Source: an uncultured Thermococci archaeon (lineage in GTDB: Archaea; Methanobacteriota_B; Thermococci; Methanofastidiosales; B48-G16). From it: a stretch of 64,000 nt of DNA. The stretch spans positions 72,809 to 136,808 of the forward strand of contig CAZQQT010000007.1 of the NCBI GenBank assembly GCA_964595645.1, given 5' to 3'. The notes beneath the pieces are model-generated. The model ran no database searches, had not been told where the DNA came from, and saw nothing but the letters and a program-made list of their open reading frames with translations. Positions 7,381 through 53,603 of the stretch are shown piece after piece (the stretch's first letter is position 1; every line of letters begins with the position of its first letter). Both the position numbers and the translations under genes were made by a program.

Positions 7381-7441
7381 AACTTTTATAGGTACTCTTT
7401 CGAAATGGAGAAAATATTTATAGAAAGACTTAGAAGTATAA

Positions 7442-8783: not shown

Positions 8784-8797
8784 TAAATTTTAAATAG
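8784..8797 (+). promoter_or_regulatory. Candidate archaeal TATA box (ATAAATTTTAAATA) ~40-50 nt upstream of the hsdM start
   Basis: AT-rich box at the expected distance. An AGGAGGAGG ribosome-binding site lies at 8823-8831. Confidence 0.2.
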
Positions 8798-8836
8798 AAT
8801 CTAGTGGAATAATAACAAAGAGTAGGAGGAGGAATA

Positions 8837-11871: not shown

Positions 11872-12253
11872 ACCAAAATATGTTGAAAAGATCGCCGAGG
11901 GTGAGAAGAAACTGGAGTTCAGAAAGGTGATCTTCAAGGACGAGAACAGGCCGGACACCATATACATATATTGCACCTCTCCTGTCAAGAAGATAATCGG
12001 CTATTTCACCACCGGTGAGATCTTCGAGGACGACCCGGCCGAGCTCTGGGACAGGTTCCATAACCTTGCAGGTATAAGTGAAGAGGAGTTCTTCGATTAC
12101 TTCTCGGGAAAGGAAAGAGGATACGCCATCGGTATCGAGGACTTCAACCAGTTCGACAACGCTATCGACCCTTACGAAGTGATCCCGGGATTCACACCAC
12201 CCCAGTCCTTCTGCTATATGAACGACGATCTCCAGAGGTATCACGATGTCTGA
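11849..12253 (+). CDS. ASCH-domain (PUA-like superfamily) protein
   Basis: Highly typical ASCH N-terminus (MNVLLSIKPKYVEKIAEGEKKLEFRK) and core (GYFTTGEIF...PQSF). It overlaps the upstream stop and the hsdS start. Noticeably more GC-rich than the flanking genes. Confidence 0.65.
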   Translation: MNVLLSIKPKYVEKIAEGEKKLEFRKVIFKDENRPDTIYIYCTSPVKKIIGYFTTGEIFEDDPAELWDRFHNLAGISEEEFFDYFSGKERGYAIGIEDFNQFDNAIDPYEVIPGFTPPQSFCYMNDDLQRYHDV

Positions 12254-13568
12254 GTACAAGGAAGTGCAGATCGGGCCCAAGACGGTGGAGATACCTGTGG
12301 AGTGGGATAAAGTTAAAGTTGAAGGTATTTTCGAGATAATTAAAGGGCAAAGTTATAAAAGTAAATATTATGCTGATGAAGAGGATGGGTTTATATTCAT
12401 TAATTTAAAATGTATAAACAAGAAAGGAGGATTTAATAAAGAAGGTATAAAATTTTATCAGGGACCTTTTGCAGAGAAAAATTTTGTTGAACCAGGAAAT
12501 TTGATAATGGCCAATACAGATTTAAACCGTGACGCAGAAGTAGTAGGATATCCTCTTTATGTACCAGAATTTAATAATGAAAAAAAAATAGGAATATCTA
12601 TGGATGTCTCAGTGTTAAGAAAAAAGAACAGTTGTGTAATTGATAAATATTTTTATTATTTATTTAGCAATGAGATTATTCACGGTGCAGTACAAAATTT
12701 TGCTGAAGGATCAACTGTATTACATCTTGATTTAGATTCTGTAAAAAATTTAACAATCCCCCTCCCACCACTCCCCGAACAGCGCCGTATCGCAGAGATC
12801 TTATCTACCGTGGACGATGCCATCCAGAAGACGGATGAGGTCATCGAGAAGGCGGAGAGGTTGAAGAAGGGGCTGATGCAGGACCTGTTGACCAAGGGGA
12901 TAGGGCACGATGAGTTTAAGGAAGTGCAGATCGGGCCGAGATCTATTAAAATCCCCAAAGAATGGGATATTAAGAATTTACAACCGTCCAATGGGATTGT
13001 AAAAAAAGTTACTGATGGATCCCATTACTCACCACCCCAAATAGAAGAGGGTGAATATCTTTACGCAACCGTTACGAACTTTAGCGATAGGGGTATAGAT
13101 TATGGAACATGTAATAAAATAAATGAAGAAGAATATCTTAAGATGGTAGAAGGGGGTAATAAACCTCTGAAAGGAGATGTACTTTTCAGTAAAGATGGGA
13201 CTATTGGAATCACTGATGTATATGAAGATGATGAAGATGTGGTATTACTTTCGTCCATTGCAATCATTAGGCCTATACAAAATCAAGTAAATCCAATTTA
13301 TTTGAAATATTTTCTATCTTCAAAAGAAATCGAACATCAAATACGTTCTTTTAAAAGTGGAACTGCGATTCGCCGTGTAGTTCTTAGAGATATCAAAAAA
13401 TTCAAAATTCCACTACCATCTCTACCCGAACAGCGCCGCATCGCAGAGATTCTATCAAATATCGACAGTAAAATCCAAAAAGAAAAATCCTATAAACAAA
13501 ACCTCCAGAAACTCAAAAAAGGATTGATGCAGGACCTGTTGACAGGAAAAGTGAGGGTGAATACATGA
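12246..13568 (+). CDS. hsdS: Type I R-M specificity subunit HsdS with two target-recognition domains
   Basis: Two-fold internal repeat architecture. Each TRD is preceded by (E/Y)KEVQIGP(K/R) and followed by the conserved coiled-coil LP(P/S)LPEQRRIAEILS...KKGLMQDLLT(K/G). Confidence 0.85.
   Translation: MSEYKEVQIGPKTVEIPVEWDKVKVEGIFEIIKGQSYKSKYYADEEDGFIFINLKCINKKGGFNKEGIKFYQGPFAEKNFVEPGNLIMANTDLNRDAEVVGYPLYVPEFNNEKKIGISMDVSVLRKKNSCVIDKYFYYLFSNEIIHGAVQNFAEGSTVLHLDLDSVKNLTIPLPPLPEQRRIAEILSTVDDAIQKTDEVIEKAERLKKGLMQDLLTKGIGHDEFKEVQIGPRSIKIPKEWDIKNLQPSNGIVKKVTDGSHYSPPQIEEGEYLYATVTNFSDRGIDYGTCNKINEEEYLKMVEGGNKPLKGDVLFSKDGTIGITDVYEDDEDVVLLSSIAIIRPIQNQVNPIYLKYFLSSKEIEHQIRSFKSGTAIRRVVLRDIKKFKIPLPSLPEQRRIAEILSNIDSKIQKEKSYKQNLQKLKKGLMQDLLTGKVRVNT
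12771..12893 (+). repeat. hsdS central conserved region, copy A of an intragenic direct repeat (...ccgaacagcgccgtatcgcagagatc...ctgatgcaggacctgttgac...)
   Basis: Near-identical DNA to 13421..13545. Classic hsdS repeat that enables TRD shuffling. Confidence 0.7.
13421..13545 (+). repeat. hsdS distal conserved region, copy B of the intragenic direct repeat
   Basis: Matches 12771..12893 at DNA level. A second short repeat pair lies at 12249..12292 and 12912..12955 (gag t(a/t)(c/t)aaggaagtgcagatcgggcc). Confidence 0.7.
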
Positions 13569-16500
13569 CACAGGATTGGACTGAGTACCACCTGACGGAG
13601 AAACCAGCATTAGATCTTCTAGAAGAGCTGGGGTATACAGTCTACGATATCAATGAGACCTTTGAACGACCGGAACGAGACTTGTTGCGAGAGGTGCTGT
13701 TACTGAACAACGTACGGTCGGCGATTCAACGAATTAACCCATGGATCTCAGAGAATAACCTCAATAAAGCGGTGAACATGATCCGTCCCACAAGAATCCG
13801 GGCCGCTGGAATGATAGAAGCCAACGAGATCACCTACACCCGACTGGTCAAGTACATCTCAGTTCCTCAGGATCTGGGAAAAGGAAAAAAGAATCAGACG
13901 GTAAAGTACATTGATTTTGAGCATCCTGAAAACAACGAGTTCTTGGCACTGAACCAGTACAAGGTAAAAGGACACGAGAAAATAAAACCGGACATCGTGA
14001 TCTTTGTTAACGGCATTCCCATCGGCGTCATCGAGTGCAAAAACGAGACTACCTGCGATGATCCAGAGGACGATGCCATCGATCAGTTGCGACGGTATCA
14101 GAACATTCGGTACGAGAATGAGAATGAAGGTGCAGAGCAACTGTTTTATCCTAACCAAATACTTGTAGCAGCCTGGCGGGATTCTGCCTCCTCCTGTGCC
14201 ATTGGTGCACCAGCCCGACAGTTCAAAGCGTGGAAGGATCCCTATCCACACACAAAAGAAGAGATTCGATCCGTAGTCGGAAGAAACGTTACCCTCCAAG
14301 ATATACTCCTCTTCTCCCTCTTCAAAAAAGATCGTCTGCTAGATCTCATTCAGAACTTCATCGTGTTTGAACGCGCAGGAAACAAGCTCATCAAAAAACT
14401 GGCGCGGTACCAGCAGTATCGAGCAGTAACCAAAGCTGTCGAACGGATAAAGAACGCAGACACACTGATTGATCGGAGTGGTACTGTCTGGCACACTCAG
14501 GGATCGGGGAAGTCTCTCTCCATGCTCTTTTTGGCCCTCAAACTGCGACGAATGGAAGGACTGGGAAATCCCACACTTCTCGTAGTAACAGACAGAATCG
14601 ATCTCGACGACCAGATCACCGGTACCTTCGAACGGTGCGGATTTCCAAATCCAATCCAAGCGCAAGATACAGACAATCTCAAAGAGTTGCTCAGAAGAAA
14701 CGTCGGAAAAACGATTATGACGACGGTGCACAAATTCCAGGAACGTGTGAAGGAGAAATACCCTGTTCTCACTGAAGATACGAATGTGTTTGTAATGGCC
14801 GACGAGGCACACAGGACACAGTACAAAGACTTGGCGGCAAATATGCGAAGAGCCTTGCCCAACGCCTGCTACTTGGGATTCACGGGGACGCCTATCGACA
14901 AAGAAGAGAGAAGCACACTGCGGACCTTCGGATCCTATATCGACACCTACACCATCGATGAGTCCGTTGACGATGGAATGACGCTCAATATCCTTTACGA
15001 GGGAAGAATCCCTGAGTTACGAGTTGAAGGACGCGATCTCGACGATTTATTCGACAGAATATTCAAAAACTACTCCAACGAAGAGAAGAAAAAAATAAAA
15101 GAGAAGTACGCAACTGAACGAGACATTGCTGAAGCAAAATCCAGAATTGAACGGATATGTCTTGATATCATCGATCATTACGAATCAAAAATATATCCCC
15201 TCAAAGGACAGATAGTAACAGTGAGCAGAGAAGCAGCCGCCAGATACAAGGAAGCAATGGACAGGTTTAACGGACCTGAGTCTGCTGTGATCATCAGCAG
15301 TGATCAGAACGATCCGCCGCTTCTCAAGAAGTACCATACATCTGCTGGTGAACGAAAGCATCTTATTGAAACATTTAAAGATCCGGAAAGTAATCTCTGC
15401 CTCCTCATTGTCTGTGATATGCTGCTGACTGGATTTGACGCACCAGTAGAGCAGGTAATGTATTTAGACAAGCCGCTCAAAGAACATAATCTCCTGCAAG
15501 CGATTGCACGAGTGAACAGACGGTTTGAAGAGAAAAATTATGGTCTTATTGTGGACTACTATGGCGTGTTTGATTACCTCCAAGAAGCATTGGCCGTCTT
15601 CAATAAAAAGGATATAGAAAACGCTGTCACCCCCATCAAGGATGAAAAACCGAGGCTGGAGAGAACGTATAGACAGGTTATGCAGTTTTTTGAAGGAGTG
15701 GATCTTGATGACCTCGATGAGTGCATCCTAACCTTTAAAGACGAAGACAAACGACTGAAGTTCAAACGTGCTTTTAAAGCCTTTGCAAAGAGCATGGATA
15801 TCGTTATGCCCGATCCAATCGCGGATCCGTACCGTGAGGATCTCAAAACACTGGGGAAAATTTACAAAGCGGTGAGAAACCACTACCGTGACAGCTCTTT
15901 GGACATAAAGGGTGTTGGTGGGAAGGTAAAGCGGCTAATAGATGAACATATTCGCGCAACCGACATCAAAATACTCAATGAACCGGTCTCTATTCTTGAC
16001 AAAGAGGAGTTCGATCGTACTGTAGAAGAGCATGAAAATATTGAGACTAAAGCTAGTGAGATGGAACACGCAATCCGAAGTGAGATTAGTGTGAAAATGG
16101 AAGAGAACCCTGTCTTTTACCAATCGCTGAAAGAACGGTTAGAGGAAATTATCGAAAAGAGAGTCCAGGGAAGATTCACCTTTACCAAACAGTTAGAAGA
16201 AATGAGAGAGATAATCCACGAAATTCGAGATGTGAGGACAAAAGCCGAGAAGCTAGGATTGAATGAGCGAGAGTTTGCTCTCTACGAACTGCTCCTCGAC
16301 GAAAGAGAACATGAACGGGTGGAGACAGTGAGTGAGAGTACGGGAGCCTACCATCCTGGTGGTCCTGAACTGCATATTAATAAAAAGGTTAGAGATTTAT
16401 CCAAACAATTAATGGACGACCTTGAAGACATGAGAGTCGTGGATTGGAAGGAAAAGAAAATGATTCTAAAAGAAATGAGAAAAGTGATCAAACTCACGTT

Positions 16501-16579
16501 GAGTGAGTACAAAGAATTCAAGAAAAATCTGGATAGCGTCACAACGAAAGTGATCAAACTCGCGAGGAATATCCTATGA
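13565..16579 (+). CDS. hsdR: Type I R-M restriction subunit HsdR (SF2 helicase/translocase plus N-terminal PD-(D/E)xK nuclease)
   Basis: Nuclease motif (PDIVIFVNGIPIGVIECK). Helicase motif I (TQGSGKSLSM), motif II (DEAH: VMADEAHRTQ) and later motifs (TGFDAP, QAIARVNR). 1004 aa. ATGA overlaps at both ends. Confidence 0.9.
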   Translation: MTQDWTEYHLTEKPALDLLEELGYTVYDINETFERPERDLLREVLLLNNVRSAIQRINPWISENNLNKAVNMIRPTRIRAAGMIEANEITYTRLVKYISVPQDLGKGKKNQTVKYIDFEHPENNEFLALNQYKVKGHEKIKPDIVIFVNGIPIGVIECKNETTCDDPEDDAIDQLRRYQNIRYENENEGAEQLFYPNQILVAAWRDSASSCAIGAPARQFKAWKDPYPHTKEEIRSVVGRNVTLQDILLFSLFKKDRLLDLIQNFIVFERAGNKLIKKLARYQQYRAVTKAVERIKNADTLIDRSGTVWHTQGSGKSLSMLFLALKLRRMEGLGNPTLLVVTDRIDLDDQITGTFERCGFPNPIQAQDTDNLKELLRRNVGKTIMTTVHKFQERVKEKYPVLTEDTNVFVMADEAHRTQYKDLAANMRRALPNACYLGFTGTPIDKEERSTLRTFGSYIDTYTIDESVDDGMTLNILYEGRIPELRVEGRDLDDLFDRIFKNYSNEEKKKIKEKYATERDIAEAKSRIERICLDIIDHYESKIYPLKGQIVTVSREAAARYKEAMDRFNGPESAVIISSDQNDPPLLKKYHTSAGERKHLIETFKDPESNLCLLIVCDMLLTGFDAPVEQVMYLDKPLKEHNLLQAIARVNRRFEEKNYGLIVDYYGVFDYLQEALAVFNKKDIENAVTPIKDEKPRLERTYRQVMQFFEGVDLDDLDECILTFKDEDKRLKFKRAFKAFAKSMDIVMPDPIADPYREDLKTLGKIYKAVRNHYRDSSLDIKGVGGKVKRLIDEHIRATDIKILNEPVSILDKEEFDRTVEEHENIETKASEMEHAIRSEISVKMEENPVFYQSLKERLEEIIEKRVQGRFTFTKQLEEMREIIHEIRDVRTKAEKLGLNEREFALYELLLDEREHERVETVSESTGAYHPGGPELHINKKVRDLSKQLMDDLEDMRVVDWKEKKMILKEMRKVIKLTLSEYKEFKKNLDSVTTKVIKLARNIL

Positions 16580-17313
16580 AATCTACAGAAAAAGTCTCCC
16601 TTGGAAAAACAACAATTCACTACAAAATTGTTCGGAGTAAGAGAAAGACGTTGGGAATTAAAGTTGGACTTGAAGAAGGAGTAATTGTTAGAGCACCGAC
16701 TCACTTACCGGTGGACGTTATACGAAAAAAGGTACAAGAAAAGGGGGACTGGATTCTACAAAAACTTGAAAAAATGGGTGAAATTGAGCCGAAACCAGCT
16801 CCTAAAGAATTTATGAGTGGAGAAAAATTGCCGTATTTAGGAAGAAGATATAGGTTAAAGGTTAATAAGGAAAATAATAGTTCTAAAGAAGTTGATGTGA
16901 GATTATATCGTGGTAAATTTTATATTGGCCTCAGCTCTCAGATAAACGAGAGTGAGAGAAGGACGAAAATACGGCAAGCGCTAATCAAATGGTATAGATC
17001 GCACGCACAAAAAAGAATCGCAGAAAGAGTAGAGAAGTATCAATCCAAAATTGGTGTAACGCCTGCGAAAGTAAAGGTAAAGCATCAAAAGAAACGGTGG
17101 GGGAGTTGCTCCAACAAGCGCAACCTGAACTTCAACTGGAGAATTATCATGGCCCCGATATCGCTTGTTGACTACGTGGTAGTACACGAACTTACTCATC
17201 TTAAGTACCCACATCACTCAAAAGAGTTCTGGGATACTATTGCATCAATTCTTCCTGACTATAAAGAAAGACGTGAAAGGTTAAGGGTAAAGGGAAACAC
17301 GTTAGAATTTTAG
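16576..17313 (+). CDS. DUF45/YgjP-like (WLM/M48-type) zinc metallopeptidase
   Basis: HExxH motif in the typical context (DYVVVHELTHLKYPHHSKEFW). Translationally coupled to hsdR. This family recurs next to hsdR genes. Confidence 0.7.
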   Translation: MKSTEKVSLGKTTIHYKIVRSKRKTLGIKVGLEEGVIVRAPTHLPVDVIRKKVQEKGDWILQKLEKMGEIEPKPAPKEFMSGEKLPYLGRRYRLKVNKENNSSKEVDVRLYRGKFYIGLSSQINESERRTKIRQALIKWYRSHAQKRIAERVEKYQSKIGVTPAKVKVKHQKKRWGSCSNKRNLNFNWRIIMAPISLVDYVVVHELTHLKYPHHSKEFWDTIASILPDYKERRERLRVKGNTLEF

Positions 17314-17370
17314 ATAGAGAGAATAGTATAGTAGAAGATTTATAAAGATCATCTGCGAAGAGAGAGGAGG

Positions 17371-18081
17371 GTGTGTGGTATGAAAAATTCATTCACGCTT
17401 CGTGAACTGCCAGAAGAAGAAAGACCAAGAGAGCGTCTTCAAACTCTTGGAGTGAATTATCTCTCAATGCAAGAACTATTAGCCTTAGTAATTGAAAGGG
17501 GAAGTAGAGGAAAGAATGTGTTGACTATTGCCCAAGAACTCCTCGCTACGTTCGGGAACCTCTCCAAAATCAAAGAAGCTTCCATAGAACAACTTCAACA
17601 GGTCGATGGAATCGGGATTGCTACTGCATGTAAGCTAAAGGCCTCGCTAAAATTAGGTGAAAAAGCATTGATCGTGCACGAACGGTATGGACAAAAAGTG
17701 GAATCACCGGAAAATATATTCCATTTACTTAAAAATGACCTGGGAAACAAAAAGAGAGAACATTTTAAAATAATCTTATTGAACACGAAAAAACATATTA
17801 TAGCCATTGAAAATATCTCTATCGGATCTTTAAATAGTAGCATTGCACACCCACGAGAGATATTCCGTTCTGCTATTCAACATGCAGCGGATTCTGTAAT
17901 TTTGGTGCATAATCATCCTTCGGGTGATCCTAGTCCAAGTGATGACGATATTGAGCTCACTGAAAGACTCATAAAGGTGGGAGATATTTTGGGTATAAAA
18001 GTAGTAGACCATGTGATTATCGCTGGTAAGTCCTTCGTGAACCTTCGGGGGGAGGAAGAAACTGCTGGAATATGGAAATAA
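17371..18081 (+). CDS. radC: RadC-like JAB/MPN-domain protein (HhH plus JAMM metalloprotease motif)
   Basis: HhH region (LQQVDGIGIATACKL). JAMM motif (ILVHNHPSGDPSPSDDD). Confidence 0.75.
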   Translation: MCGMKNSFTLRELPEEERPRERLQTLGVNYLSMQELLALVIERGSRGKNVLTIAQELLATFGNLSKIKEASIEQLQQVDGIGIATACKLKASLKLGEKALIVHERYGQKVESPENIFHLLKNDLGNKKREHFKIILLNTKKHIIAIENISIGSLNSSIAHPREIFRSAIQHAADSVILVHNHPSGDPSPSDDDIELTERLIKVGDILGIKVVDHVIIAGKSFVNLRGEEETAGIWK

Positions 18082-27003: not shown

Positions 27004-28184
27004 TTAGATCTCCGGTTTCGCTTTATACTTGAACTGTTTCTCGTACAGCTGCTCCGCCCGTTCCAGGGTATCCGCATCCTCCGGTGACTTATCGTACCGA
27101 ATACTCGTGATCCGCGCAAACCGGAGCATACCCTGACTCGTACTGCGGACTCTGCTGGATCTCATTAAACGCGACTTCCACCACAAGCTCGGGCCGAACG
27201 TAGACCGTGTACGCATCTTCATCCCGTTTCAACTCCAGCAACGTCTCCGTGAGCTCCTGGAACTGGGCGTCCGTGGGCCCCTTGAAGGTTTTCCCAGCAT
27301 ATGCCCCTTCCGGGTGGCGAGATGGTAGTTGCTCAACCAGTTCTTCCTGCGTCCATGGCCCCACTCCGCCGCGATGATGAGGAGATCCAGGGTCTCGGTG
27401 GGCTTGATCTTTTTCCACGTTTTCTCGCGTTTTCCCGGAATATACGGGCTGTCCAGCTCCTTCACCATCACTCCCTCGTGGCCGGCACTGATCGCCTCCT
27501 CCAGAAAATGACGAGTCTCCTCCTTCTCGTCGGTGATAATCCTCTTTACCATGAAGGATCCGGCGAACTCGCTGAGGAATTCCGTCCGTTTTCTATACAG
27601 TTCATCGAGGAGCGTCTCGCCATTCAAATAGAGAAGATCGAAGAGGTAGAGCTTCAGCGGAATCTCCTCGGTAGCCGCCATCACATCATGGATGCGCCGA
27701 AACCGTCGGAGGAGCTCCTGGAAGGGTAACGGTTTTCCGTCTTTCTCCGCGACGACCTCGAGAACGATCCCCTCGCTGGCACCGATTCGCATCTCTCCAA
27801 AGATCGTCTTCACGATGTGGTCTGCTCCAGCACGGAGGCCTGGCTGAGAAGGCTGGCCACAATCTGCTCCTTCCGTTTCCGCTGCGAGGTGCGCGCGATC
27901 TTGCGGAAGTACTCGGACACATCCGTGATAGTCAGCTCCTGGTCGATCAGGGTTTCCTGGTGTTTTTCCCGTGCCTTCTGGACCGTGTTCCACGAGACAT
28001 CCAGTGTCGTGCTCGACGACTCGGGAAATATCTGGCCGGTGATGAGGAGGACGGCCGGCGCGATCTCATCCTCATTCAACTGCTGCAGAAACGTAGCGAG
28101 GTACTGAATTTTCTCCAGCCGCTTTGTGGTGGACGCCACCCGCTCACAACACGCTGCCAGCGCCCGGAACTTCATGATATCCAC
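27004..28184 (-). pseudogene. Relic of an ATP-dependent DNA ligase. The N-terminal DNA-binding-domain fragment is intact. Most of the DBD and adenylation motif I are deleted. Motifs III-VI and the OB/C-terminus survive across three frames.
   Basis: Fragments: DBD (MDIMKFRALAACCERVASTTKRLEKIQYLATFL..LLITGQIFPE). Motif III-IV (EGIVLEVVAEKDGKPLPFQELLRR, LYLFDLLYLNGETL). Motif V (EGVMVKELDSPYIPGKREKTWKKIKP). OB (LDLLIIAAEWGHGRRKNWLSNYHLA). C-terminus in other frames (PELVVEVAFNEIQQSPQYESGYA; LRFARITSIRYDKSPEDADTLE). Total span ~1.2 kb versus ~1.7 kb for an intact archaeal ligase. Confidence 0.6.
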
Positions 28185-29188
28185 CTGTCCAACGACGACG
28201 TCCCGTGGAGACGGCGCATTCTCGTGGTGATCCGCTCGATGCTCGTGTCGGAGAAATCTCTGACCCGGAGGAACGCCACGAGCTCGTCCTCGCAGTACTG
28301 CGTGTACTCGAGCGTGTACTCGTCCGTGACCTTTGGATGTAAGAAAATCTCTTTGATCGCGCTATAGGTGTCCGGAAGGTTTTCGCGGATCTCCGACGGG
28401 AGATCCTCCAGATGTCCATGGGATTTGAGGAGCTTCAGGCCTGTTTTGGGACCGATACCACTGATACCCTGGGTGAAGTCGTTGCCGATGAGAATAGAGA
28501 GTTCCACGAGCTGTTCCCGTGTGATCCCATGGTGATCCAGGAACTGCTGGAGATCGATAACCTCCGGTTCGTACTTCCTGAACCGTCCTGACGACGGAAG
28601 GTGCTCCTTCCCCTGAATGGTTACGTACCGTACCTGGCGGTTCGCCCCGAATAACAGCGTGTCGTAGTCCCGGCTGGCCGCAGCGTAGACATCCTTCGTC
28701 ATGTACGCCGCCTGTACCTCCGCCTCCGACGGCGCTTGCACATACGGGATGCCGAGATACGTCAACAGTTGTTTCGCCTCCTCCACCATCTCGTTGGTGA
28801 GAGACGAGGTCATGGTTGATTTTGAGTACGCGGTGGCGTAATCCTCCTTTTCCAGTGCCTCCTTCCACTCCTCCCATGCCTTCTTCTTTACCTCCCGCCG
28901 TTTTTCGATCTCCGCTTGTTTGAGCTGAGGTGGTGTGCCATCGAACACGTAGACCAGCCGGAGATGGTGATCGCTGAGCAGTCGGGTAGCCCTGGAGGCG
29001 AGTCCGATCAGATGAGAAGTGACGTTGCCTCGGCTATCGGTGAGAGATCTCCCGCTGCGTGTCCTGATTAACGCGAGAAACTGGTAGAGCACGTTGTTCG
29101 CATCGACCGCAAGTGTCGTGCCCGAGAGCGCGGAGAGACTCACGACTTTTTTCGTGATAATCGGGGTGAAGTTCACGCCCATACCCAT
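28172..29188 (-). CDS. fen: Flap endonuclease 1 (FEN-1)
   Basis: XPG-N/XPG-I architecture (MGVNFTPII..LAVDANNVLYQFL, ...YVQAPSEAEVQAAYM). H3TH (ILIGNDFTQGISGIGPKTGLKLL). 338 aa. Confidence 0.85.
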   Translation of the reverse strand: MGMGVNFTPIITKKVVSLSALSGTTLAVDANNVLYQFLALIRTRSGRSLTDSRGNVTSHLIGLASRATRLLSDHHLRLVYVFDGTPPQLKQAEIEKRREVKKKAWEEWKEALEKEDYATAYSKSTMTSSLTNEMVEEAKQLLTYLGIPYVQAPSEAEVQAAYMTKDVYAAASRDYDTLLFGANRQVRYVTIQGKEHLPSSGRFRKYEPEVIDLQQFLDHHGITREQLVELSILIGNDFTQGISGIGPKTGLKLLKSHGHLEDLPSEIRENLPDTYSAIKEIFLHPKVTDEYTLEYTQYCEDELVAFLRVRDFSDTSIERITTRMRRLHGTSSLDRWIS

Positions 29189-42935: not shown

Positions 42936-43880
42936 TCACTTGGGTATTGCTAGATCTGCTGGACCCTGCTCCGACAGTGTAAGCTCGGGGTTAATTTTGT
43001 TGATGAAATCCCGTATAAGCTGTGCATACTTCACTTTGTCCCGTGCCATATTCGCGAGGAAATCCTCTGAGGTCCACGGCTTGTAGATACCTCCGCCGGC
43101 AGCAAGGGTTGTTCCAGGCTCAATTTTGAAGTAACAGGGAGAAGAAACACGTGCGAGTTCTGCACCTTCCCACATTCTATTAAATCCTCCAAAAGACTCC
43201 GAAAGCATTATATGAACGTCTAATGGCATTTTTGTTGCTTTTCGTATCGATGCAAACATCTGAAGTGGGAGATCGCCCAATGGATTGAATGTGTTCGCTC
43301 CTAACTGCTCAAGCACCTTCGCACCGGCTGCACTGGCATGTCCAGCGTATATCGATACCTTGAAGACAGTATCTTTCGGGATAATACCATCTTCCCGTAG
43401 TTTGGAGAGCAGCCAGAGAGCTCCTTCATCAGTGGCAAGGAATCCTCTGAATCCAAGCTCGGTACATCGCACAATATCTGCGATGAGGTATGAGAGGTTA
43501 TCGCTCCCCCGGGTCCGCATACCAGAGAGAGAACCTTCTGGTGTTGCCAGCTGTCGTCCAATATCCCAGCCCCGGCGTGGTCCGGGTGTAATAATCACTT
43601 CCATTTCCTTCTCTTTTGCCAGTGCCGCAAACTCTTCCAGTTCCTCATCGTCTAGATATGTGGAACCCATCACCGTACTGATCAGTCTGTGCACTGGCAC
43701 ATTACGTTCTTCCATCTCGTCTACCAATGCTTCAAGAGTAGAGAGCCGTTCGACTCCAGAGATCTCTATTCGGTAGTTCGCACCATCTGGAAAGGTCAAA
43801 GAAGAGGTTGGCAGTTCGTACAGGTCTCTTCCCGGTACTCCATGTTTCTCCATGGCACTCCTAATTTTCTCTATGTCCAT
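42936..43880 (-). CDS. Conserved hypothetical protein (314 aa), possibly a TIM-barrel enzyme, co-directional with and immediately upstream of aor
   Basis: ORF with a 4-nt gap to aor. No diagnostic motif recognised. Confidence 0.4.
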   Translation of the reverse strand: MDIEKIRSAMEKHGVPGRDLYELPTSSLTFPDGANYRIEISGVERLSTLEALVDEMEERNVPVHRLISTVMGSTYLDDEELEEFAALAKEKEMEVIITPGPRRGWDIGRQLATPEGSLSGMRTRGSDNLSYLIADIVRCTELGFRGFLATDEGALWLLSKLREDGIIPKDTVFKVSIYAGHASAAGAKVLEQLGANTFNPLGDLPLQMFASIRKATKMPLDVHIMLSESFGGFNRMWEGAELARVSSPCYFKIEPGTTLAAGGGIYKPWTSEDFLANMARDKVKYAQLIRDFINKINPELTLSEQGPADLAIPK

Positions 43881-45766: not shown

Positions 45767-47095
45767 TTACGAGCACGTGATGCCCAAGTTCTCCGCGATC
45801 TCTTCACAAAGTTCGAGCGCTTTCAAGAGTTCATTGTTCGCGTAGATCGTATTCTGTGTCGTGTTCGCGTTATCGAGGTGAGTCTGCATCTCGTCCAGTA
45901 ACGCTTCGACGTCATCTGGTATGTCCTCCGGCAAGTTCTCCTCGATACACGCGTGGTATGTATTCACCTGCGCGAGATGGTAGTTTTTCACCGGCATGAA
46001 GGACACAATGGGGTTGATGAATAGCTCCTCTCCAAGCATTGCGCCGTAGATATCATTTGGATAATTCCTGGCATCCATCCAGACAACGATGTTCTCATAG
46101 ATTGCTGGATGCCGTTGAAGATTGTTAGGATAGGTGGCTATGGGAAAGACTGTATACGTTGAGAGATCACGACCGTACAGATCATAATTACTCAACAACC
46201 CCGCAGGACCATCCATCCAGACGACGATGTCACCATAGATATCCGGATTGTAATGACACATTCCTCCTGTCGTTATCGGAAACTCTGTATGTGTTGAGAT
46301 GGTATAGCCATAGATATCGGAGACCATTGGTCCATTTCTGTGATCCTGCCAGACGACAATATTTCCGTAGATTGCTGGATAGACTTGACCATTCGGATCT
46401 GTCGTTATCGGAAACTCGCCGACATCATCTCCTGTTCCGATCCTGCCGTCCGGCCCCATGTCGTAGCCGTAGATATCGGGGTTAGCTGACCCATTTCTTT
46501 CATCCATCCAGACGACGATGGATCCGTAGATTGCTGGATGCCTCTGATGAGATCCACATACTATGCAGAGGGGAATTTCACCGCCATCGTCTCCTGTTCC
46601 GAAGAGACCGTCCGGCCCCATGTCGTAGCCGTAGATATCATCATCTGATGGACCATTTCTATCATCCGCCCACACAATGGTCTTCCCGTAGATCACCGGA
46701 TGGTACTGACCGCTCGTATGTGTTGTTACCTGAAACTCCGTATGAGTTGAGAAATTATAGCCGTAAATATTGCAATCTGTCCAGCTACCGGTATCGTCTC
46801 TGTAATCTTCCCAGACAACGATGTTCTCATGAATTGATGGATTCTGTTGCACACTCGCAGCCGTGCATATGGGGAACTCTGTATTCGTTGAGAGGTTGTA
46901 TCCGTAGATGTCCTCATTCGATGGACCATTTCTGTCGTCATACCAGACGACAATATCACCATAGATATCCGGGTCTCTTTGATCGTTTGGATCTGTACAT
47001 ATAGGAAACTCTTGTACCGTATAGCTCGCCGAAACGATACCAACTAGTGAAATCAACAATAATACTACCAATATTCCTCCTTTTATTTTTCTCAT
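45767..47095 (-). CDS. Secreted tandem-repeat protein. About eight ~46-aa repeats with a (D/N)IYG(Y/D)-x-IVVW-x-D-x-RNG consensus. Predicted beta-propeller.
   Basis: Signal peptide (MRKIKGGILVVLLLISLVGIVSASYT). Repeats visible in the protein (DIYGDIVVWYDDRNGPSNEDIYGYNLST.., PAIYGSIVVWMDERNGSANPDIYGYDMGPDG.. and so on). Confidence 0.6.
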   Translation of the reverse strand: MRKIKGGILVVLLLISLVGIVSASYTVQEFPICTDPNDQRDPDIYGDIVVWYDDRNGPSNEDIYGYNLSTNTEFPICTAASVQQNPSIHENIVVWEDYRDDTGSWTDCNIYGYNFSTHTEFQVTTHTSGQYHPVIYGKTIVWADDRNGPSDDDIYGYDMGPDGLFGTGDDGGEIPLCIVCGSHQRHPAIYGSIVVWMDERNGSANPDIYGYDMGPDGRIGTGDDVGEFPITTDPNGQVYPAIYGNIVVWQDHRNGPMVSDIYGYTISTHTEFPITTGGMCHYNPDIYGDIVVWMDGPAGLLSNYDLYGRDLSTYTVFPIATYPNNLQRHPAIYENIVVWMDARNYPNDIYGAMLGEELFINPIVSFMPVKNYHLAQVNTYHACIEENLPEDIPDDVEALLDEMQTHLDNANTTQNTIYANNELLKALELCEEIAENLGITCS

Positions 47096-47258: not shown

Positions 47259-48524
47259 TCATTTCTCCATTCGTCGTTTGAGCGATCGTGCATGCCCATA
47301 TAACCCTTCCGTCTCTGCAAGCATCCTCGCTATACTACCTATCTTTTCAATTCCCGTTTTCGTCACGCGGAGAGTTGTCTGAAGCTTAACGAAATCTATG
47401 GCACTCAAGCCGCCGGTATACCGCGCACCGGTATTAGTAGGGAGTGTATGGTTGAGTCCGCTGCTGTAATCACCGAGAGCTTCGGCAGCGAAGGATCCGA
47501 CAAAGAGCGATCCGTAGTTTCGTAGGCATGGGATGTACTGGTCGGGATCGCGTAGCTGAAGTTCCAGATGTTCAGGTGCCCTTTTGTTCGCAATTTTAAC
47601 TGCTTCGTCTATTCCCTCGGTAAGAATCATCGCCCCGTGCGCTATCGCCTTCTCAGCAGTGGATCGTGTGGGGAGCCCCTCGAGCTGGTGTTGAAGCTCC
47701 GTTGCAACCCGCTCCGCCAAGGTTACCGATGGTGTAACTAAGAGTGGTAATGCATTGTCATCGTGTTCCGCTTGCGCAAGCAAATCGGCTGCAACGATCG
47801 CCGGATCCGCTGTCTCATCGGCAATGATCATGAGCTCGGTGGGGCCTGCGAGGAAATCGATGCCTACAGCACCAAGCACCTGTTTTTTTGCCGCTGTGAC
47901 GTACGTATTTCCAGGTCCCACGATTTTATCCACCTTTTTGATAGATTCTGTTCCGTAGGCCATAGCCCCTATCGCCTGGACACCTCCCACTTTATACAGT
48001 TCGTCCACGCCGACACGGGCTGCTGCGGTGAGAAGTGCTGGATGGATGGTACCCTCATAGGTTGGGGGTGAGCAGACAGCGATCTCCTTCACTCCTGCAA
48101 CAACAGCTGGAATGCAGCACATAAGCAGTGTAGAGAGAAGCGGTGCCTGCCCGCCGGGAACGTAGACACCCACACGATCTATCGGGATAATTTGCTGGCC
48201 GGCGAAGACCCCAGGGGCGATCTCCATTTCAAATGCGGTGAGCTGGGAGAACTGACGTTCGGCGAACTGTGTGATGTTCCTCGCAGCTGCATCGATTGCG
48301 TCCGCCACAGACGTATCTGTCACGTGAACTGCCTCTCTGAACTCGTGACCCTCTACTCGAAGTTTTTCCAAGACCACATGGTCAAACTCGAGGGTATAGC
48401 GCTTCACTGCCCTATCTCCTTTCTCTCGTACCTCTTGGAGTATTGTTCTCACTGTATCCAATTCCTCAGGCTCCTTGTACGTAAAGAACTCATCCGTGAG
48501 TTCATCTGCAGTAACAATCCTCAT
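47259..48524 (-). CDS. hisD: Histidinol dehydrogenase
   Basis: 421 aa. Conserved HisD regions (..GGQAPLLSTLLMC.., ..AEHDDNA..). Overlaps the upstream gene by 4 nt. Confidence 0.9.
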   Translation of the reverse strand: MRIVTADELTDEFFTYKEPEELDTVRTILQEVREKGDRAVKRYTLEFDHVVLEKLRVEGHEFREAVHVTDTSVADAIDAAARNITQFAERQFSQLTAFEMEIAPGVFAGQQIIPIDRVGVYVPGGQAPLLSTLLMCCIPAVVAGVKEIAVCSPPTYEGTIHPALLTAAARVGVDELYKVGGVQAIGAMAYGTESIKKVDKIVGPGNTYVTAAKKQVLGAVGIDFLAGPTELMIIADETADPAIVAADLLAQAEHDDNALPLLVTPSVTLAERVATELQHQLEGLPTRSTAEKAIAHGAMILTEGIDEAVKIANKRAPEHLELQLRDPDQYIPCLRNYGSLFVGSFAAEALGDYSSGLNHTLPTNTGARYTGGLSAIDFVKLQTTLRVTKTGIEKIGSIARMLAETEGLYGHARSLKRRMEK

Positions 48525-49774
48525 TCTTTTCTCCTCCGTGCAAGCTCATAAAATACCTCATCAAGGGGTATCCCTCGTTTTGCCAGCAAAACAGTAGAAA
48601 AGTATAGGAGATCGGCAATTTCCCATATCACCCCTTCGTCTGTTTCTGCCTCTACTACCTCCTGCGCTTCCTCCAGAATCTTCTCTCTGAGGAGAGGATC
48701 AGTTAGTGTGGCAGTATACGATCCCTGCTGTGGGCTGTTCAGCCTGTCCTGGACTATCTCGTAGAGCTCATACAACTCGTAGTCTCTCTCGCCGAAACAG
48801 GAGTACGATCCCGTATGGCAGGCGACACCTTCCTGCGCTACAGTAGCAAGAATCGTGTCGCCATCGCAGTCTGCCCTCATCCGTATAAGCTCCTGCGTAT
48901 TCCCCGAGGTTTCTCCTTTCTGCCACAGACTATCCCGGGATCGAGAGAAGTACCACATCTTTTCCGTCTCAAACGCTTTTCGAAGCGACTCTTTACTGCT
49001 GTACGCGAGCATGAGCACCTGTCCTGTGGTATCCTGTGTGATTGTTGGAATGAGGTCACTATCCCATCTCAGCGAAGCAATGAAGGCTTCTGTAAGATCT
49101 ATTTTTCCTGTATAGAGTGCCATGCCGAGTTGAATATCCACTCCCATCCGTGAGAGCTCCCGTATCTCCTTCATCGTGCTCACTCCTCCAGCAACGGTGA
49201 TCGGGTTCTCTGTGGTGTGTACCAGCGCTTCCACTACGTCCATGTCAGTTCCCTTCATTGTGCCTTCACGTTCCACGCAGGTAAAGAGGAACTCGGCAGC
49301 GTATGTCTCCAGATGCGAGACTGTCTCAAGGAGATCGAGTCCTGTAGTGTGTCGCCATGCGTCGGTCACGATCTCTCTGTGGAGAGCATCAATGGCAATG
49401 ATCACTCTGTCTCTTCCCACCGCCGAGACCAACGCTTCAAGAAAACCGTCGTTGATCCTGCCGCTATCAAAGGCTTTCGATCCGACGATGATCTTTTTCG
49501 CGCCGAGAGAAATGAGCTCCCGTGCATGTTCCGGTGTCCGTACTCCACCACCCACACGACAGTCCCCAATTCTCAGGATCTTTTTTACTGTCTCAGCATT
49601 ATCGCCTTTGTTCATGGCGGCATCGAGATCGATGACTGCGATCTCACCGTATCTATCAAACTCTCTGGCAAGAGAAAACACATCCTCACGTTCAAGCATC
49701 TTTTTCCTTCCCTGTTGTAACTGCACCGCCTTTCCCTCTTTGAGGTCGATGGAAGGGATGATCATCGTACGCAC
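48521..49774 (-). CDS. hisA/hisIE: Trifunctional fusion HisA-HisI-HisE: ProFAR isomerase, PR-AMP cyclohydrolase and PR-ATP pyrophosphohydrolase in one 417-aa polypeptide
   Basis: HisA barrel (MIIPSIDLKEGKAVQLQQG...GGGVRT...VAGGVST). HisI (SRSRDSLWQKGETSGNTQELIRMRADCDGDTILATVAQEGVACHTGSYSCF). HisE (GSYTATLTDPLLREKILEEAQEVVEA...IWEIADLLYFSTVLL). Confidence 0.8.
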   Translation of the reverse strand: MRTMIIPSIDLKEGKAVQLQQGRKKMLEREDVFSLAREFDRYGEIAVIDLDAAMNKGDNAETVKKILRIGDCRVGGGVRTPEHARELISLGAKKIIVGSKAFDSGRINDGFLEALVSAVGRDRVIIAIDALHREIVTDAWRHTTGLDLLETVSHLETYAAEFLFTCVEREGTMKGTDMDVVEALVHTTENPITVAGGVSTMKEIRELSRMGVDIQLGMALYTGKIDLTEAFIASLRWDSDLIPTITQDTTGQVLMLAYSSKESLRKAFETEKMWYFSRSRDSLWQKGETSGNTQELIRMRADCDGDTILATVAQEGVACHTGSYSCFGERDYELYELYEIVQDRLNSPQQGSYTATLTDPLLREKILEEAQEVVEAETDEGVIWEIADLLYFSTVLLAKRGIPLDEVFYELARRRKE

Positions 49775-50514
49775 ACTCCTCTTTTCTTTAGATACGTCTT
49801 GATCTCCTGTACTGTGTACTCACCGTCGTGAAGAAGGGATGCCAGGAGAACGGCATCTGTCTTTCCGTTTTCCACTACCTCGTATATTTGTTCGAGGGTT
49901 CCAGCCCCACCTGATGCAATAACTGGGATGTTCACGCTCTCAGAGACTGTCCTCGTGAGCTCAAGATCGTAGCCTTGCTGCGTTCCGTCTCTATCCATAG
50001 AGTTGAGCAGGATCTCGCCTGCACCAAGCGCTTCGCCTTTTTTTGCCCAGGAAATAACATCAACCCCCGAATTATTCCGTCCACCATGGGTATAGGCGTA
50101 CCATCGGGTCCCTCGTTTTTTCGCGTCGACAGAGAGTACGATACATTGGGATCCAAAAGTCTGTGCCCCGCGAGAGAGAAGATCGGGGTTGTGGAGGGCG
50201 GAAGTGCATAGTGCAACTTTATCAGCGCCTGCATTCAGAACAGCACGCATATCCTCAACAGTTCGCAATCCTCCACCAACTGTGAGCGGAATGAAGACCT
50301 CTCTCGACACGCCCCTCACTACATCGATAAGGATCTCTCTACTTTTATAGGAGGCTCCAATATCGAGAAAGATGAGTTCATCGGCTCCTTGATCATTGTA
50401 CCGTCTCGCAAATTCCATTGGATCGCCTACATCGCGGAGTTCCTTAAATCTTACACCCTTTCTCACTCTTCCCTCGTCTACATCGAGACAGGGAATAATC
50501 CGTGTTGTTAACAT
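49762..50514 (-). CDS. hisF: Imidazole glycerol phosphate synthase cyclase subunit
   Basis: IIPCLDV...GADELIFLDI...GGGLRT...ASGGAG motifs. Confidence 0.9.
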   Translation of the reverse strand: MLTTRIIPCLDVDEGRVRKGVRFKELRDVGDPMEFARRYNDQGADELIFLDIGASYKSREILIDVVRGVSREVFIPLTVGGGLRTVEDMRAVLNAGADKVALCTSALHNPDLLSRGAQTFGSQCIVLSVDAKKRGTRWYAYTHGGRNNSGVDVISWAKKGEALGAGEILLNSMDRDGTQQGYDLELTRTVSESVNIPVIASGGAGTLEQIYEVVENGKTDAVLLASLLHDGEYTVQEIKTYLKKRGVCVR

Positions 50515-51104
50515 TGTCTCACCCAGTTTTTCAGGAGGTTAAGCCCAATTTTTCCGCTCTTTTCCGGGTGAAACTGCACAGCGTAGATCTTACCCTTTCC
50601 AATCACAGAAGGGTAGGAGACACCATACTCGGTGGTGCCGATCACAATGGACTCCTCTGTACGAACGTAGTACCCGTGCAAAAAGTAAAAAAAGGAACTA
50701 TCATCGATTCCTTCCATTAACGGCGAGTTCCGTTTTATAGAAACGTTGTTCCACCCTATCTGTGGTACTTTATACCTTTCAAACTCAACGACATTGCCGC
50801 GGAAAATGCCAAACCCCCTCGTATCCTCCGCCTCTTCACTTGTTTCAAAAAGGAGCTGCATGCCGAGGCAGATCCCTAAAAACGGCCTATCCGCGCGTAT
50901 CCAGTCATCAATATGCTCATACATGCCTGAAAACACTAGCCGGAGAATCGCAGAACGGAATGCACCGACACCTGGAAGAATCAGGCCATCTATCCCTCTA
51001 AAATCTTTTTTCGATTCGACAACTTTGTATTGTGTTCCCAAGTATTCTAGCGCTTTTTTTACTGAAAGGAGATTTCCAGCTCCATAATCTACTATTCCAA
51101 TCAT
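50508..51104 (-). CDS. hisH: Imidazole glycerol phosphate synthase glutaminase subunit
   Basis: Class I GATase (MIGIVDYGAGNL..LPGVGAF..GICLGMQLL..HPE). Confidence 0.9.
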   Translation of the reverse strand: MIGIVDYGAGNLLSVKKALEYLGTQYKVVESKKDFRGIDGLILPGVGAFRSAILRLVFSGMYEHIDDWIRADRPFLGICLGMQLLFETSEEAEDTRGFGIFRGNVVEFERYKVPQIGWNNVSIKRNSPLMEGIDDSSFFYFLHGYYVRTEESIVIGTTEYGVSYPSVIGKGKIYAVQFHPEKSGKIGLNLLKNWVRQC

Positions 51105-51688
51105 ACTATCCCCTTTGTGCTTGGTATAGCGTTTTTTCGCCGTTTTTCAATAGTGCACGCCCTCTTCAACGAATGTCCGAAGGCTTTAAAGATTGCCTCG
51201 ATCTTGTGGTGATCGGAACGGCCGTAATACACGTGCACATGAAGTGTGGCCCCCAACGATCCAACAATCCCCTGAAAAAAATCGTTTAACAACTCAGTAG
51301 AGAGATCACCAACTCTCTTGTTTTCAAAGGTTGCATGCATGGTGAGATGGGTTCTGTTGGATATATCGACGGCAGTCATTGCCAACGCGTCATCCATGGG
51401 GCAGACAAAGAACCCCGTCCTACAAATGCCTCTTTTATCACGCAATGCTTTCCTAAAAGCTTCGCCCAGTACAATTCCTGTATCTTCGACAGTGTGGTGC
51501 TGATCCACCGCTGTATCACCGTGTACTTCCATTTCCAGATCAAAGACTCCATGCTTCGCAAAGGTCTCCAACATGTGCGTTAAAAACCCTATAGGTGTTT
51601 TTACAGTGCTCTCTCCCGTTCCATCAAGGTTGAGCTCTATTCGTATCTGTGTCTCCTTTGTGTTTCTCTCAACAACAGCAGTTCTCAT
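51101..51688 (-). CDS. hisB: Imidazoleglycerol-phosphate dehydratase
   Basis: IGPD motifs (RNTKETQIRIELNLDG, HMLE..HG.FDL, HHTVEDTGI). Confidence 0.85.
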   Translation of the reverse strand: MRTAVVERNTKETQIRIELNLDGTGESTVKTPIGFLTHMLETFAKHGVFDLEMEVHGDTAVDQHHTVEDTGIVLGEAFRKALRDKRGICRTGFFVCPMDDALAMTAVDISNRTHLTMHATFENKRVGDLSTELLNDFFQGIVGSLGATLHVHVYYGRSDHHKIEAIFKAFGHSLKRACTIEKRRKNAIPSTKGIV

Positions 51689-52752
51689 ATTGACACATCT
51701 CCCATTCCTTTTTCCTCTCGGGGTAGAATATCTCTCAGTACGCTAAGAAACGCGGTATTTTCGCTGCGGGTACCGACAGTTACTCGAAGATATCCGTCCA
51801 TTACTGGCAATGAGCTGAGATCCTTCACCAGTATTCCCCTTTTCTCTAAGGCGTTTTTGATACACTCGGCATCCTGTCCCACATTGACCAAGATGAAATT
51901 TGTAGCCGTAGTACGCGTGTTAACGCCCAGTTTTCTCAATGCACTGGAAAGAAACGCCTTTTCCTTCTGTATATGGTTGACCATGCGACCTATATAGGCA
52001 GTATCGGCAAGTGCTGCTCTCCCTGCAGCAACAGCTGCAGCATTAACAGAAAAAGGAGAAACCACCTTTCGAAGCTCGTCAATGATCTCTTCACTCGCTA
52101 CGGCCATACCCAGCCGCAGACCGGCCAGCCCAAATGCCTTGGAAAAGCTGTGGACTGTAATGAGGTTTTCGAACTCCTCGACGAGATCGACGTACGACTC
52201 ACCGGCAAAGTGGTAGTAGGTTTCATCCAGCACGACCAGTGAGTTGCTCATTTCCTCCATGATGTCAACGAACTCATCTTTGTCGATGCACGTGCCGGTG
52301 GGGCTTCCTGGATTCACAACAACCACAAGCTTCCCTGACTGTGATACGAGGCGTTTCGTTGGAAAGGAAAGATCCTCATTGTACATCACAGGTACCACCT
52401 GTGCTCCTCGTATCTGTGCCAAGATTTCGTACATGGGAAATGTCGGAGAGGGGAGTATCGCCCTATCTCCCTTTCCAATGTACGCGTTCATCGCCGCTTG
52501 AATCGCTCCATTGGCACCATTGGTGAGAAGAATATTTTCAGGGGGTACTGCTAAATACGTTGAAATTTCCTCAACTAACTGAGAATAATCCGGGTATAAG
52601 CTTATATCATTGGAATCCAGAGCGTGAAGAGCTTCTAGTGCCTTCGATGAGCAGCCTCTAGTATTCTCGTTGAGGTTCAGCCGTATAGCAGATTTTCGTA
52701 ATTTAGGTGGTAGATACGGTGAAACCTCAGCCAGTTCCTCACGAGCTCTCAC
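51685..52752 (-). CDS. hisC: Histidinol-phosphate aminotransferase
   Basis: Class II aminotransferase, 355 aa, PLP-lysine region (HSFSKAFGLAGLRLG). Operon context. Confidence 0.85.
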   Translation of the reverse strand: MRAREELAEVSPYLPPKLRKSAIRLNLNENTRGCSSKALEALHALDSNDISLYPDYSQLVEEISTYLAVPPENILLTNGANGAIQAAMNAYIGKGDRAILPSPTFPMYEILAQIRGAQVVPVMYNEDLSFPTKRLVSQSGKLVVVVNPGSPTGTCIDKDEFVDIMEEMSNSLVVLDETYYHFAGESYVDLVEEFENLITVHSFSKAFGLAGLRLGMAVASEEIIDELRKVVSPFSVNAAAVAAGRAALADTAYIGRMVNHIQKEKAFLSSALRKLGVNTRTTATNFILVNVGQDAECIKNALEKRGILVKDLSSLPVMDGYLRVTVGTRSENTAFLSVLRDILPREEKGMGDVSI

Positions 52753-53603
52753 AGGACCACCTTCCGCAACTCGTACTCCAGAATGTCGGTCGCACCGAGG
52801 TTTTTGAGTTGTGGTATCAGTTTTGCTGTTTCCGTCCGTTTCACCGCAATTTTTACCGCGTACCCTTTCTCCCCATAGAGTGGTGCCATAGTTGGAGATC
52901 GCATGCAGGGGAGACTCTGAATGATTTCATCGGCTCTCTCTTGAGGAACGTTCATCTCAAGCATGACCCGTTCCCGGGCGTCAAGTACCGCCTCAAACAG
53001 CGTCGTTAATTCGTCGATCTTCTCTCGTTTCCAGGGATCCTCCAACGCCTTTCTACTTCCGATAAATCGAGTGGATGAGTTCAAAAGTGTGCTGACAACG
53101 TGGAGGTTGTGCTTCTCGAGTGTCCGTCCAGTGGAGGTGTTATCAACGATCATATCAGCATCGTCAGGAGGAAAAACCTCTGTTGCACCGTGGGTCCGTA
53201 AAAATACGTAGTCGTATCCTTCTTTCTTAAGAAAATTCGTGGTGATTCTCTCGTACTCAGACGCAACGACGATCCTTCTCTCATGGAGATTTTCGTGCAG
53301 AAGATCCTCCGGTACCGCCGCCACAATTTGTACGGGATCGAACCCGAGATCCAGTACCTCCACCACATCCGCACCTGTTTCAAGTACCCAATCATGTCCA
53401 GTAACCCCGACATCGTGCGATCCCAGCTCGAGAAGTGTTGGGATATTCTGCGGTTTCATTATTTTCATTTCAAGCTCTGTGTCACTGACAGTAGGTCTGT
53501 ACGTTCGCTCCTTTACCTCTATCCGTATGCCTGCCTCGTTCAGAAGGCCGATCACATTCCCATGAATCCTACCCTTCGGTATAACAATTCGTAATGTTGT
53601 CAC
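52749..53603 (-). CDS. hisG: ATP phosphoribosyltransferase (long form)
   Basis: MTTLRIVIPKGRIHG..., 284 aa with a C-terminal regulatory domain. First gene of the minus-strand operon. Confidence 0.85.
   Translation of the reverse strand: MTTLRIVIPKGRIHGNVIGLLNEAGIRIEVKERTYRPTVSDTELEMKIMKPQNIPTLLELGSHDVGVTGHDWVLETGADVVEVLDLGFDPVQIVAAVPEDLLHENLHERRIVVASEYERITTNFLKKEGYDYVFLRTHGATEVFPPDDADMIVDNTSTGRTLEKHNLHVVSTLLNSSTRFIGSRKALEDPWKREKIDELTTLFEAVLDARERVMLEMNVPQERADEIIQSLPCMRSPTMAPLYGEKGYAVKIAVKRTETAKLIPQLKNLGATDILEYELRKVVL

Follow-up and report, generated by a model that had tools for sequence, protein, structure and literature searches.

Does a single open reading frame (ORF) in the histidine biosynthesis (his) operon of an uncultured Thermococci archaeon (Methanofastidiosales, B48-G16) encode an enzyme for three steps of the pathway? 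The ORF lies on the minus strand of a 64,000-nucleotide stretch of DNA (GenBank assembly GCA_964595645.1, contig CAZQQT010000007.1, positions 72,809 to 136,808), here called the window. A first-pass annotation had read it as a fusion of HisA, the isomerase of N′-[(5′-phosphoribosyl)formimino]-5-aminoimidazole-4-carboxamide ribonucleotide (ProFAR), with the phosphoribosyl-AMP (PR-AMP) cyclohydrolase HisI and the phosphoribosyl-ATP (PR-ATP) pyrophosphohydrolase HisE. It had also stated that HisA was not a consecutive step and, contradicting itself, that the fusion joined consecutive reactions. The former statement is wrong and the latter correct, as HisE, HisI and HisA represent steps 2, 3 and 4; along the chain, the domains (A-I-E) run counter to the order of the reactions. 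With a probability of roughly 0.85, we judge the predicted product to be a functional trifunctional enzyme for these three steps, the main uncertainty being its glutamate-type HisA domain. The gene and its parts were mapped as follows:

48521..49765, minus strand: hisA-hisI-hisE fused gene, 414 residues from ATG 49765, stop codon TGA at 48521-48523
48521..49774, minus strand: longest ORF of the fused gene, GTG start at 49774, 417 residues
49082..49765, minus strand: HisA (ProFAR isomerase) domain, residues 1-228, complete eight-strand (βα)8 barrel
48782..49081, minus strand: HisI (PR-AMP cyclohydrolase) domain, residues ~229-328
48524..48781, minus strand: HisE (PR-ATP pyrophosphohydrolase) domain, residues ~329-414

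Three full-length Pfam domains were found in one reading frame of the fused ORF, all with scores far above chance: His_biosynth (PF00977; residues 4-226, profile positions 1-228 of 228, E = 4e-48), PRA-CH (PF01502; residues 255-327, E = 1e-32, 111.8 bits) and PRA-PH (PF01503; residues 334-414, E = 3e-19, 69.5 bits). Among the NCBIfam models, those for HisIE (NF002747, 191.5 bits vs a cut-off of 187; residues 229-416, profile positions 4-206 of 208), HisI (NF000768, 135.6 vs 126) and HisE (TIGR03188, 68.2 vs 42.7) exceeded their cut-offs. Together with 179 independent homologues, these domains bear out the proposed union of HisA, HisI and HisE in a single polypeptide. The 417-residue ORF does exist when read from the GTG at 49774, but the protein is more likely to start three codons further 3′, at ATG 49765. 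This ATG shares an ATGA with the stop codon of hisF and lies 10 nucleotides (nt) downstream of a GGAG, and gene callers made the public identical protein (P0001) and most listed homologues 414 residues long; we therefore preferred it. The GTG start, which is just 1 nt away from the same GGAG, was considered less likely. Catalytic residues, junction and structure are numbered according to the 414-residue form.

Alignment to the references 1zps and 6j2l, a check that had been proposed at the first pass, showed the catalytic residues of both C-terminal domains to be intact. The HisI motif (D299-C300-D301-G-D303 ... C316-H317 ... C323) matches that of 1zps, and its residues are invariant or nearly so in an alignment of 32 fused proteins (A1); by likeness to M. 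thermautotrophicus HisI, we take them to serve as Zn and Mg ligands. The acidic metal-binding cluster on the helices of HisE is present here as E365, E366, E382 and D385, all invariant in A1, and E369, which is at least 90% conserved.

The best NCBIfam models for the N-terminal barrel were those of HisA (TIGR00007, 166.5 bits; NF010112, 154.7 bits), and HisA profiles outscored the HisF, WbuZ and PriA profiles by a wide margin. The equivalog models for HisF (TIGR00735, 61.3 vs a cut-off of 294.55) and PriA (TIGR01919, 90 vs 306.45) stayed below their cut-offs, and assignment of the barrel to HisF or PriA was ruled out by the NCBIfam scores. The domain matches the His_biosynth profile over its full length and has the (βα)8 fold of HisA. 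We aligned it with E. coli HisA and HisF (NC_000913) and with PriA/HisA structures. D7 (codon 49745-49747) aligned to the β1 aspartate (D7 of E. coli and Salmonella HisA) and D126 (codon 49388-49390) to the β5 aspartate (E. coli D129), while β6 carries a glutamate, E167; all three codons were confirmed by translation. The roles of D7 as general base and D176 as general acid are known for Salmonella HisA and M. tuberculosis PriA, and PDB entry titles reflect these acid/base residues (D7N/D176A, D11N). D7, D126 and E167-G168 are invariant in A1, as are G72-G74, G193-G194 and G214, which we take to be the phosphate-binding loops. Since the catalytic residues of all three domains are conserved, purifying selection appears to act on all three active sites. 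Of the catalytic aspartates on which the first-pass annotation had let the HisA assignment hinge, those of β1 and β5 are thus in place, whereas that of β6 is not.

The architecture recurred in many samples. A word-indexed search returned at least 120 listed matches, all of about 414 residues with three Pfam domains and 99% query coverage; the close full-length fused relatives share 58-100% identity with the window protein. An exhaustive HMMER search over 1.84 billion cluster representatives (50% identity level) gave 13,103 matches at E ≤ 1e-3. Among the best 150 of these, 57 span all three domains, with lengths of 393-464 residues and some longer, and identity among these distant representatives falls to about 32%. 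The 179 homologues thus comprise 122 close full-length proteins and 57 distant cluster representatives. A scan of a genome collection with exact-peptide patterns yielded, among the matches listed, one close fused relative only (KSB1, 61%). The remaining ‘full-span’ matches extend over 1.34-1.54 kb, where a fused gene would need about 1.24 kb, and from this span alone we read them as adjacent separate genes. Lineages carrying the fusion include Euryarchaeota, Planctomycetes, KSB1, Candidatus Vecturithrix and others, taxonomic statements resting on the few relatives that carry source names. The fusion had been described as rare, which holds for cultured and classically reviewed organisms, but in metagenomic data it forms a large and deep family.

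Several observations weigh against a working HisA domain. All HisA equivalog models remained below their cut-offs (228.95 for TIGR00007, 243 for NF010112). E167 (codon 49265-49267) occupies the β6 general-acid site, where E. coli and Salmonella HisA have D176 and M. tuberculosis PriA has D175; the segment reads ‘VEREGT’ in the fused protein as opposed to ‘ISRDGT’ or ‘TKDGT’ in the references. No tested or solved HisA with a β6 glutamate was found, the displayed PDB β6-β7 alignments showing aspartate and one engineered valine. Some distant fused proteins (P0163, P0184, P0192, P0199, P0213, P0244) lack the catalytic residues of HisA and/or HisI and keep the HisE cluster. Finally, our survey covered the window, so that a second, canonical hisA might lie elsewhere in the genome. 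Such findings, along with the naming of the fused proteins as ‘HisIE’ only by the Prokaryotic Genome Annotation Pipeline (PGAP), would fit a HisIE with an appendage, that is, a barrel acting as a structural or regulatory module or on another substrate, with the real hisA located elsewhere. We nevertheless regard this explanation as unlikely. The triad of D7, D126 and E167 (D-D-E) was present in 121 of the 122 close fused proteins and in 43 of the 57 distant ones, four of the latter having D-D-D, and the phosphate-loop glycines are invariant as well. Neither the window operon nor related, otherwise complete operons contain another hisA. Moreover, 12 short proteins (217-267 residues) that match the HisA domain alone also carry D-D-E, and one of them, P0201, is encoded by a true solitary HisA gene that adjoins riboflavin genes. 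Since free-standing HisA relatives share the triad, the glutamate is a feature of a HisA subfamily rather than of the fusion itself. Judged from sequence, the exchange of aspartate for glutamate is conservative, keeps the carboxylate and likely does not lower activity; being also invariant in the family, it leaves the loss of the β6 aspartate short of refuting function. Divergence of the HisA domain probably accounts both for the sub-threshold HisA scores and for the name ‘HisIE’. As to the degenerate members, the loss of HisA/HisI catalytic residues in a few distant proteins indicates that the fold can be repurposed. P0213 adjoins a UbiB/ABC1 kinase gene, and P0184 is flanked by a GGDEF gene on one side and a histidinol-dehydrogenase-like gene on the other (loci L043, 2024-3268, and L044, 7001-8314); such copies outside his operons are probably repurposed paralogues and may be pseudoenzymes.

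The best PDB matches in both sequence and fold were actinobacterial PriA/HisAp proteins (4wd0, 4u28, 2y85, 3zs4), as would be expected if the barrel were a PriA-like dual-substrate enzyme (HisA plus TrpF) that also served tryptophan synthesis. However, their margin over HisA/HisF structures is small (about 75 vs 60 bits), the PriA equivalog score is far below its cut-off and trp context is absent from the window, which leaves little room for dual specificity. Whether the fusion itself could be an artefact had been raised at the first pass as a possible assembly join of two genes. Given the ATGA overlaps in the operon, one indel would in principle suffice to merge hisA and hisIE by frameshift. 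Yet an independent Logan contig carries the identical protein within the same operon, the 122 close and 57 distant full-length homologues come from many samples, and both the sequence and the length of the junction are conserved. An assembly or frameshift artefact was thus ruled out by the distribution of homologues, and we attach next to no weight to it. The gene is not a join, and we maintain the assignment as a functional HisA-HisI-HisE enzyme.

To describe the junction, we compared the ends of the domains. The match to the HisA profile stops near residue 228, and the alignment with HisIE chains begins at residue 226 (position 3 of 6j2l); because these ends coincide, the two parts are joined effectively without a linker. 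Query positions 215-245 span 30-35 residues in 173 of the 181 aligned fused-protein rows. A227, L232, L238 and P240 are each the residue that prevails, in 35 or more of the 57 distant representatives, and close relatives show no variation at F228 and W234. A junction so fixed in length and so conserved suggests a single ancient fusion instead of many independent ones. An AlphaFold2 model computed from the 32-sequence alignment (mean predicted local distance difference test score (pLDDT) 87.2, predicted template modelling score 0.71) placed the β-strands of the barrel at residues 2-9, 42-46, 69-72, 91-94, 121-128, 158-163, 189-192 and 210-213. Helix 224-231 passes directly into the HisI sheet with a pLDDT above 90 at the junction, and the helical HisE domain comes after HisI. 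The only poorly modelled part, residues 316-328, is the Cys/His loop of HisI. In solved HisI structures this loop completes the metal site across the dimer, and we infer a dimeric assembly via HisI/HisE for the fused protein as well. Foldseek superposed the barrel on M. tuberculosis PriA (3zs4, TM-score 0.83) and Salmonella HisA, with TM-scores of 0.83-0.86 overall, and no PDB entry reached beyond about half of the fused protein.

The fused gene is the sole hisA, hisI or hisE of an otherwise complete operon, whose further members are:

52749..53603, minus strand: hisG, long form with HisG_C regulatory domain (PF01634 and PF08029; passes TIGR00070 and TIGR03455), first gene
51685..52752, minus strand: hisC, histidinol-phosphate aminotransferase (PF00155, E = 4e-54), without the HAD extension of relatives
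51101..51688, minus strand: hisB, imidazole glycerol phosphate (IGP) dehydratase only, without phosphatase domain (PF00475, E = 8e-59)
50508..51104, minus strand: hisH, glutamine amidotransferase subunit (PF00117, E = 2e-22)
49762..50514, minus strand: hisF, IGP synthase cyclase subunit (TIGR00735, 352.8 vs a cut-off of 294.55), directly upstream of the fusion
47259..48524, minus strand: hisD, histidinol dehydrogenase (PF00815, E = 5e-154), last gene

The order hisG-C-B-H-F-[A·I·E]-D agrees with the first-pass annotation and differs, as stated there, from the typical one, exemplified by G-D-C-B-H-A-F-IE of E. coli. Adjacent genes overlap by 4 nt at five of the six junctions, among them that of the fusion with hisD (TGA and ATG sharing an ATGA), and by 7 nt at the hisH/hisF junction; the operon is tightly packed and translationally coupled. 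Apart from hisF, no other HisA-, HisI- or HisE-like sequence was found in the 64-kb window. Likewise, no histidinol-phosphatase of the HAD or HisB-N type was found anywhere in the window, and an Rfam scan for a leader or riboswitch preceding the operon gave no match anywhere in it.

The order G-C-(HAD)-B-H-F-AIE-D is shared with a Euryarchaeota metagenome-assembled genome (MAG), GCA_034659995.1, and with a planctomycete MAG; Candidatus Vecturithrix has H-F-AIE. With the Euryarchaeota MAG, synteny continues past the operon (SnoaL, EamA, a 314-residue protein, aldehyde:ferredoxin oxidoreductase (AOR), aminotransferase and homoserine dehydrogenase). Identities to the proteins of the planctomycete operon (L037) amount to 68% for HisG, 63% for HisB, 60% for HisH, 69% for HisF, 63% for the fused protein and 58% for HisD, compared with 30-51% between the his proteins of the window and those of E. 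coli. So high an archaeon-bacterium identity over most of the operon suggests, provided that the MAG labels are right, that the operon was transferred between bacteria and archaea. HisC stands apart at 35% identity to its planctomycete counterpart, which suggests that hisC was replaced, or had a separate history, in a co-transferred operon otherwise at 58-69%. Relatives also carry a HAD hydrolase, likely the histidinol-phosphatase of step 8. In some of them it forms part of a hisC fusion (557 and 650 residues; L036, 4408-6081, and L041, 1858-3810), in others its gene stands on its own between hisC and hisB (L037, 4280-5047); the window operon has neither form (51101-52752).

A Pfam scan of the longer representatives revealed larger fusions. 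These comprised A-I-E-D (P0145, 860 residues; P0167, about as long), A-I-E-G (P0152, P0226), A-I-C (P0144) and H-barrel-barrel-I-E (P0177). P0154 (1501 residues) and P0175 (1586 residues) showed the arrangement A-I-E-D-C-HAD with domains for seven his activities, as judged from gene calls only. P0145 was found on six contigs (loci L041/L042, 6001-8583) in the order G, C·HAD, B, H, F, [A·I·E·D], indicating that the A-I-E-D extension is real and was made by merging with the next gene of the operon. A wider scenario, which we put forward tentatively and consider possible rather than probable, is that an old clade of Glu-type HisA fused once to HisIE, that the operon G-C-HAD-B-H-F-AIE-D moved among bacterial phyla and into Euryarchaeota, that it seeds progressive fusion, and that hisA is miscalled as absent in many MAGs.

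In the proposed reaction sequence, the C-terminal HisE domain would convert PR-ATP into PR-AMP and pyrophosphate (step 2), and the central HisI domain would form ProFAR by opening the adenine ring of PR-AMP (step 3), a reaction that depends on Zn and Mg in characterised HisI. The N-terminal barrel would then catalyse the Amadori rearrangement of ProFAR to its phosphoribulosyl isomer PRFAR (step 4), with D7 as the putative general base and E167, in place of aspartate, as the putative general acid. PRFAR would be handed to HisH/HisF, encoded directly upstream. The fusion most likely originated in a lineage with Glu-type HisA, where hisA and hisIE lay next to each other or overlapped and the stop codon separating them was lost, and would then have spread with the operon, also between bacteria and archaea. 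Its benefit may lie in keeping the three enzymes at a fixed 1:1:1 ratio and the three consecutive steps in one place; true substrate channelling, which the first-pass annotation had claimed outright, is a possibility.

Because the proteins are annotated as HisIE only, pathway reconstructions for lineages with the fusion will probably report hisA as missing, a gap that is closed by naming the barrel HisA. The finding adds hisA to the list of his-gene fusions and presents a nested fusion series together with a likely inter-domain transfer of the operon. The natural Asp-to-Glu variant of the general acid and the linker-less three-enzyme junction would be cheap to test, and both leave current understanding standing. 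If it is true that the rigid HisA-HisI junction brings the active sites near each other, the protein would offer a natural system for the channelling of labile ProFAR.

Some further features of the window were recorded. Between hisD and a SnoaL-like gene, where the Euryarchaeota MAG has a small asparaginase-family gene, a 442-residue protein is encoded (45767-47095, minus strand) that has an N-terminal hydrophobic segment, about nine ‘...IYG..VVW.D.RNG....DIYGY’ repeats and no Pfam match; it may be secreted and β-propeller-like. The gene for a 314-residue protein without Pfam match (42936-43880, minus strand) adjoins the AOR gene, as it does in the Euryarchaeota MAG (L036, 12946-13890), and its product may be an uncharacterised AOR partner. 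A block at 2449-18081 (plus strand) differs from the remainder in its low GC content (0.37-0.40 vs 0.45-0.55) and has a strong plus-strand purine skew. It encodes a 993-residue AAA_5 (McrB-like) protein, HsdM (8837-10363) and HsdR (13565-16579) of a type I restriction-modification system and more ORFs, and probably represents a horizontally acquired defence island. The archaeal nature of the window is reflected in its genes for a FEN-1-type flap endonuclease (XPG_N/XPG_I, 28172-29188) and for a DUF1122 protein, and in its synteny with the Euryarchaeota MAG.

How does the fused enzyme compare with known systems? A survey from 2007 listed five his fusions (hisA/hisF elongation, hisIE, hisNB, hisHF and hisIED) and named hisIE as the only one known in Archaea (PMC1963479), and a review from 2023 named hisD, N, B, H, F, I and E as fusion partners, hisA being absent (PMC10138114). 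A hisA joined to another his gene is in neither list. A literature search for hisAIE or HisA-HisIE as a named fusion gave irrelevant matches only. A single sentence in an mSystems article of 2024 mentions ‘HisA/F fusions with HisIE’ in four archaeal metagenomic assemblies (cluster 787.1; PMC11237513). This cluster likewise combines a HisA/HisF-type barrel with HisI and HisE in uncultivated archaea, and the window protein is very probably a further member of the same kind. The architecture has thus been seen before, yet is essentially undescribed: that article calls it scarce (DPANN, unclassified Archaea) and leaves HisA or HisF open, while the bacterial distribution, operon context, Glu variant and larger fusions reported here go beyond it. 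Bacterial HisIE (E. coli HisI; 6j2l, 6j22) aligns along its whole chain with residues ~226-411 and shares the catalytic motifs, but is about 200 residues long on its own, whereas the window protein adds an N-terminal 228-residue HisA barrel without a linker. Canonical HisA (E. coli/Salmonella, T. maritima) and actinobacterial PriA share the fold, the β1 and β5 aspartates and the glycine loops with the barrel; they are 22-27% identical to it, carry aspartate at β6 where the barrel has E167, and are not fused to HisIE. Fungal HIS4 (HisI-HisE-HisD) and plant HISN2 (HisI-HisE) are likewise multidomain enzymes with a HisIE core (PMC1963479, PMC8102479), but both are without HisA, and HIS4 joins the non-consecutive steps 2, 3 and 9/10, in contrast to steps 2-4 in the window fusion. 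Like HIS4, some relatives of the window protein add a C-terminal HisD, as in the A-I-E-D protein P0145.

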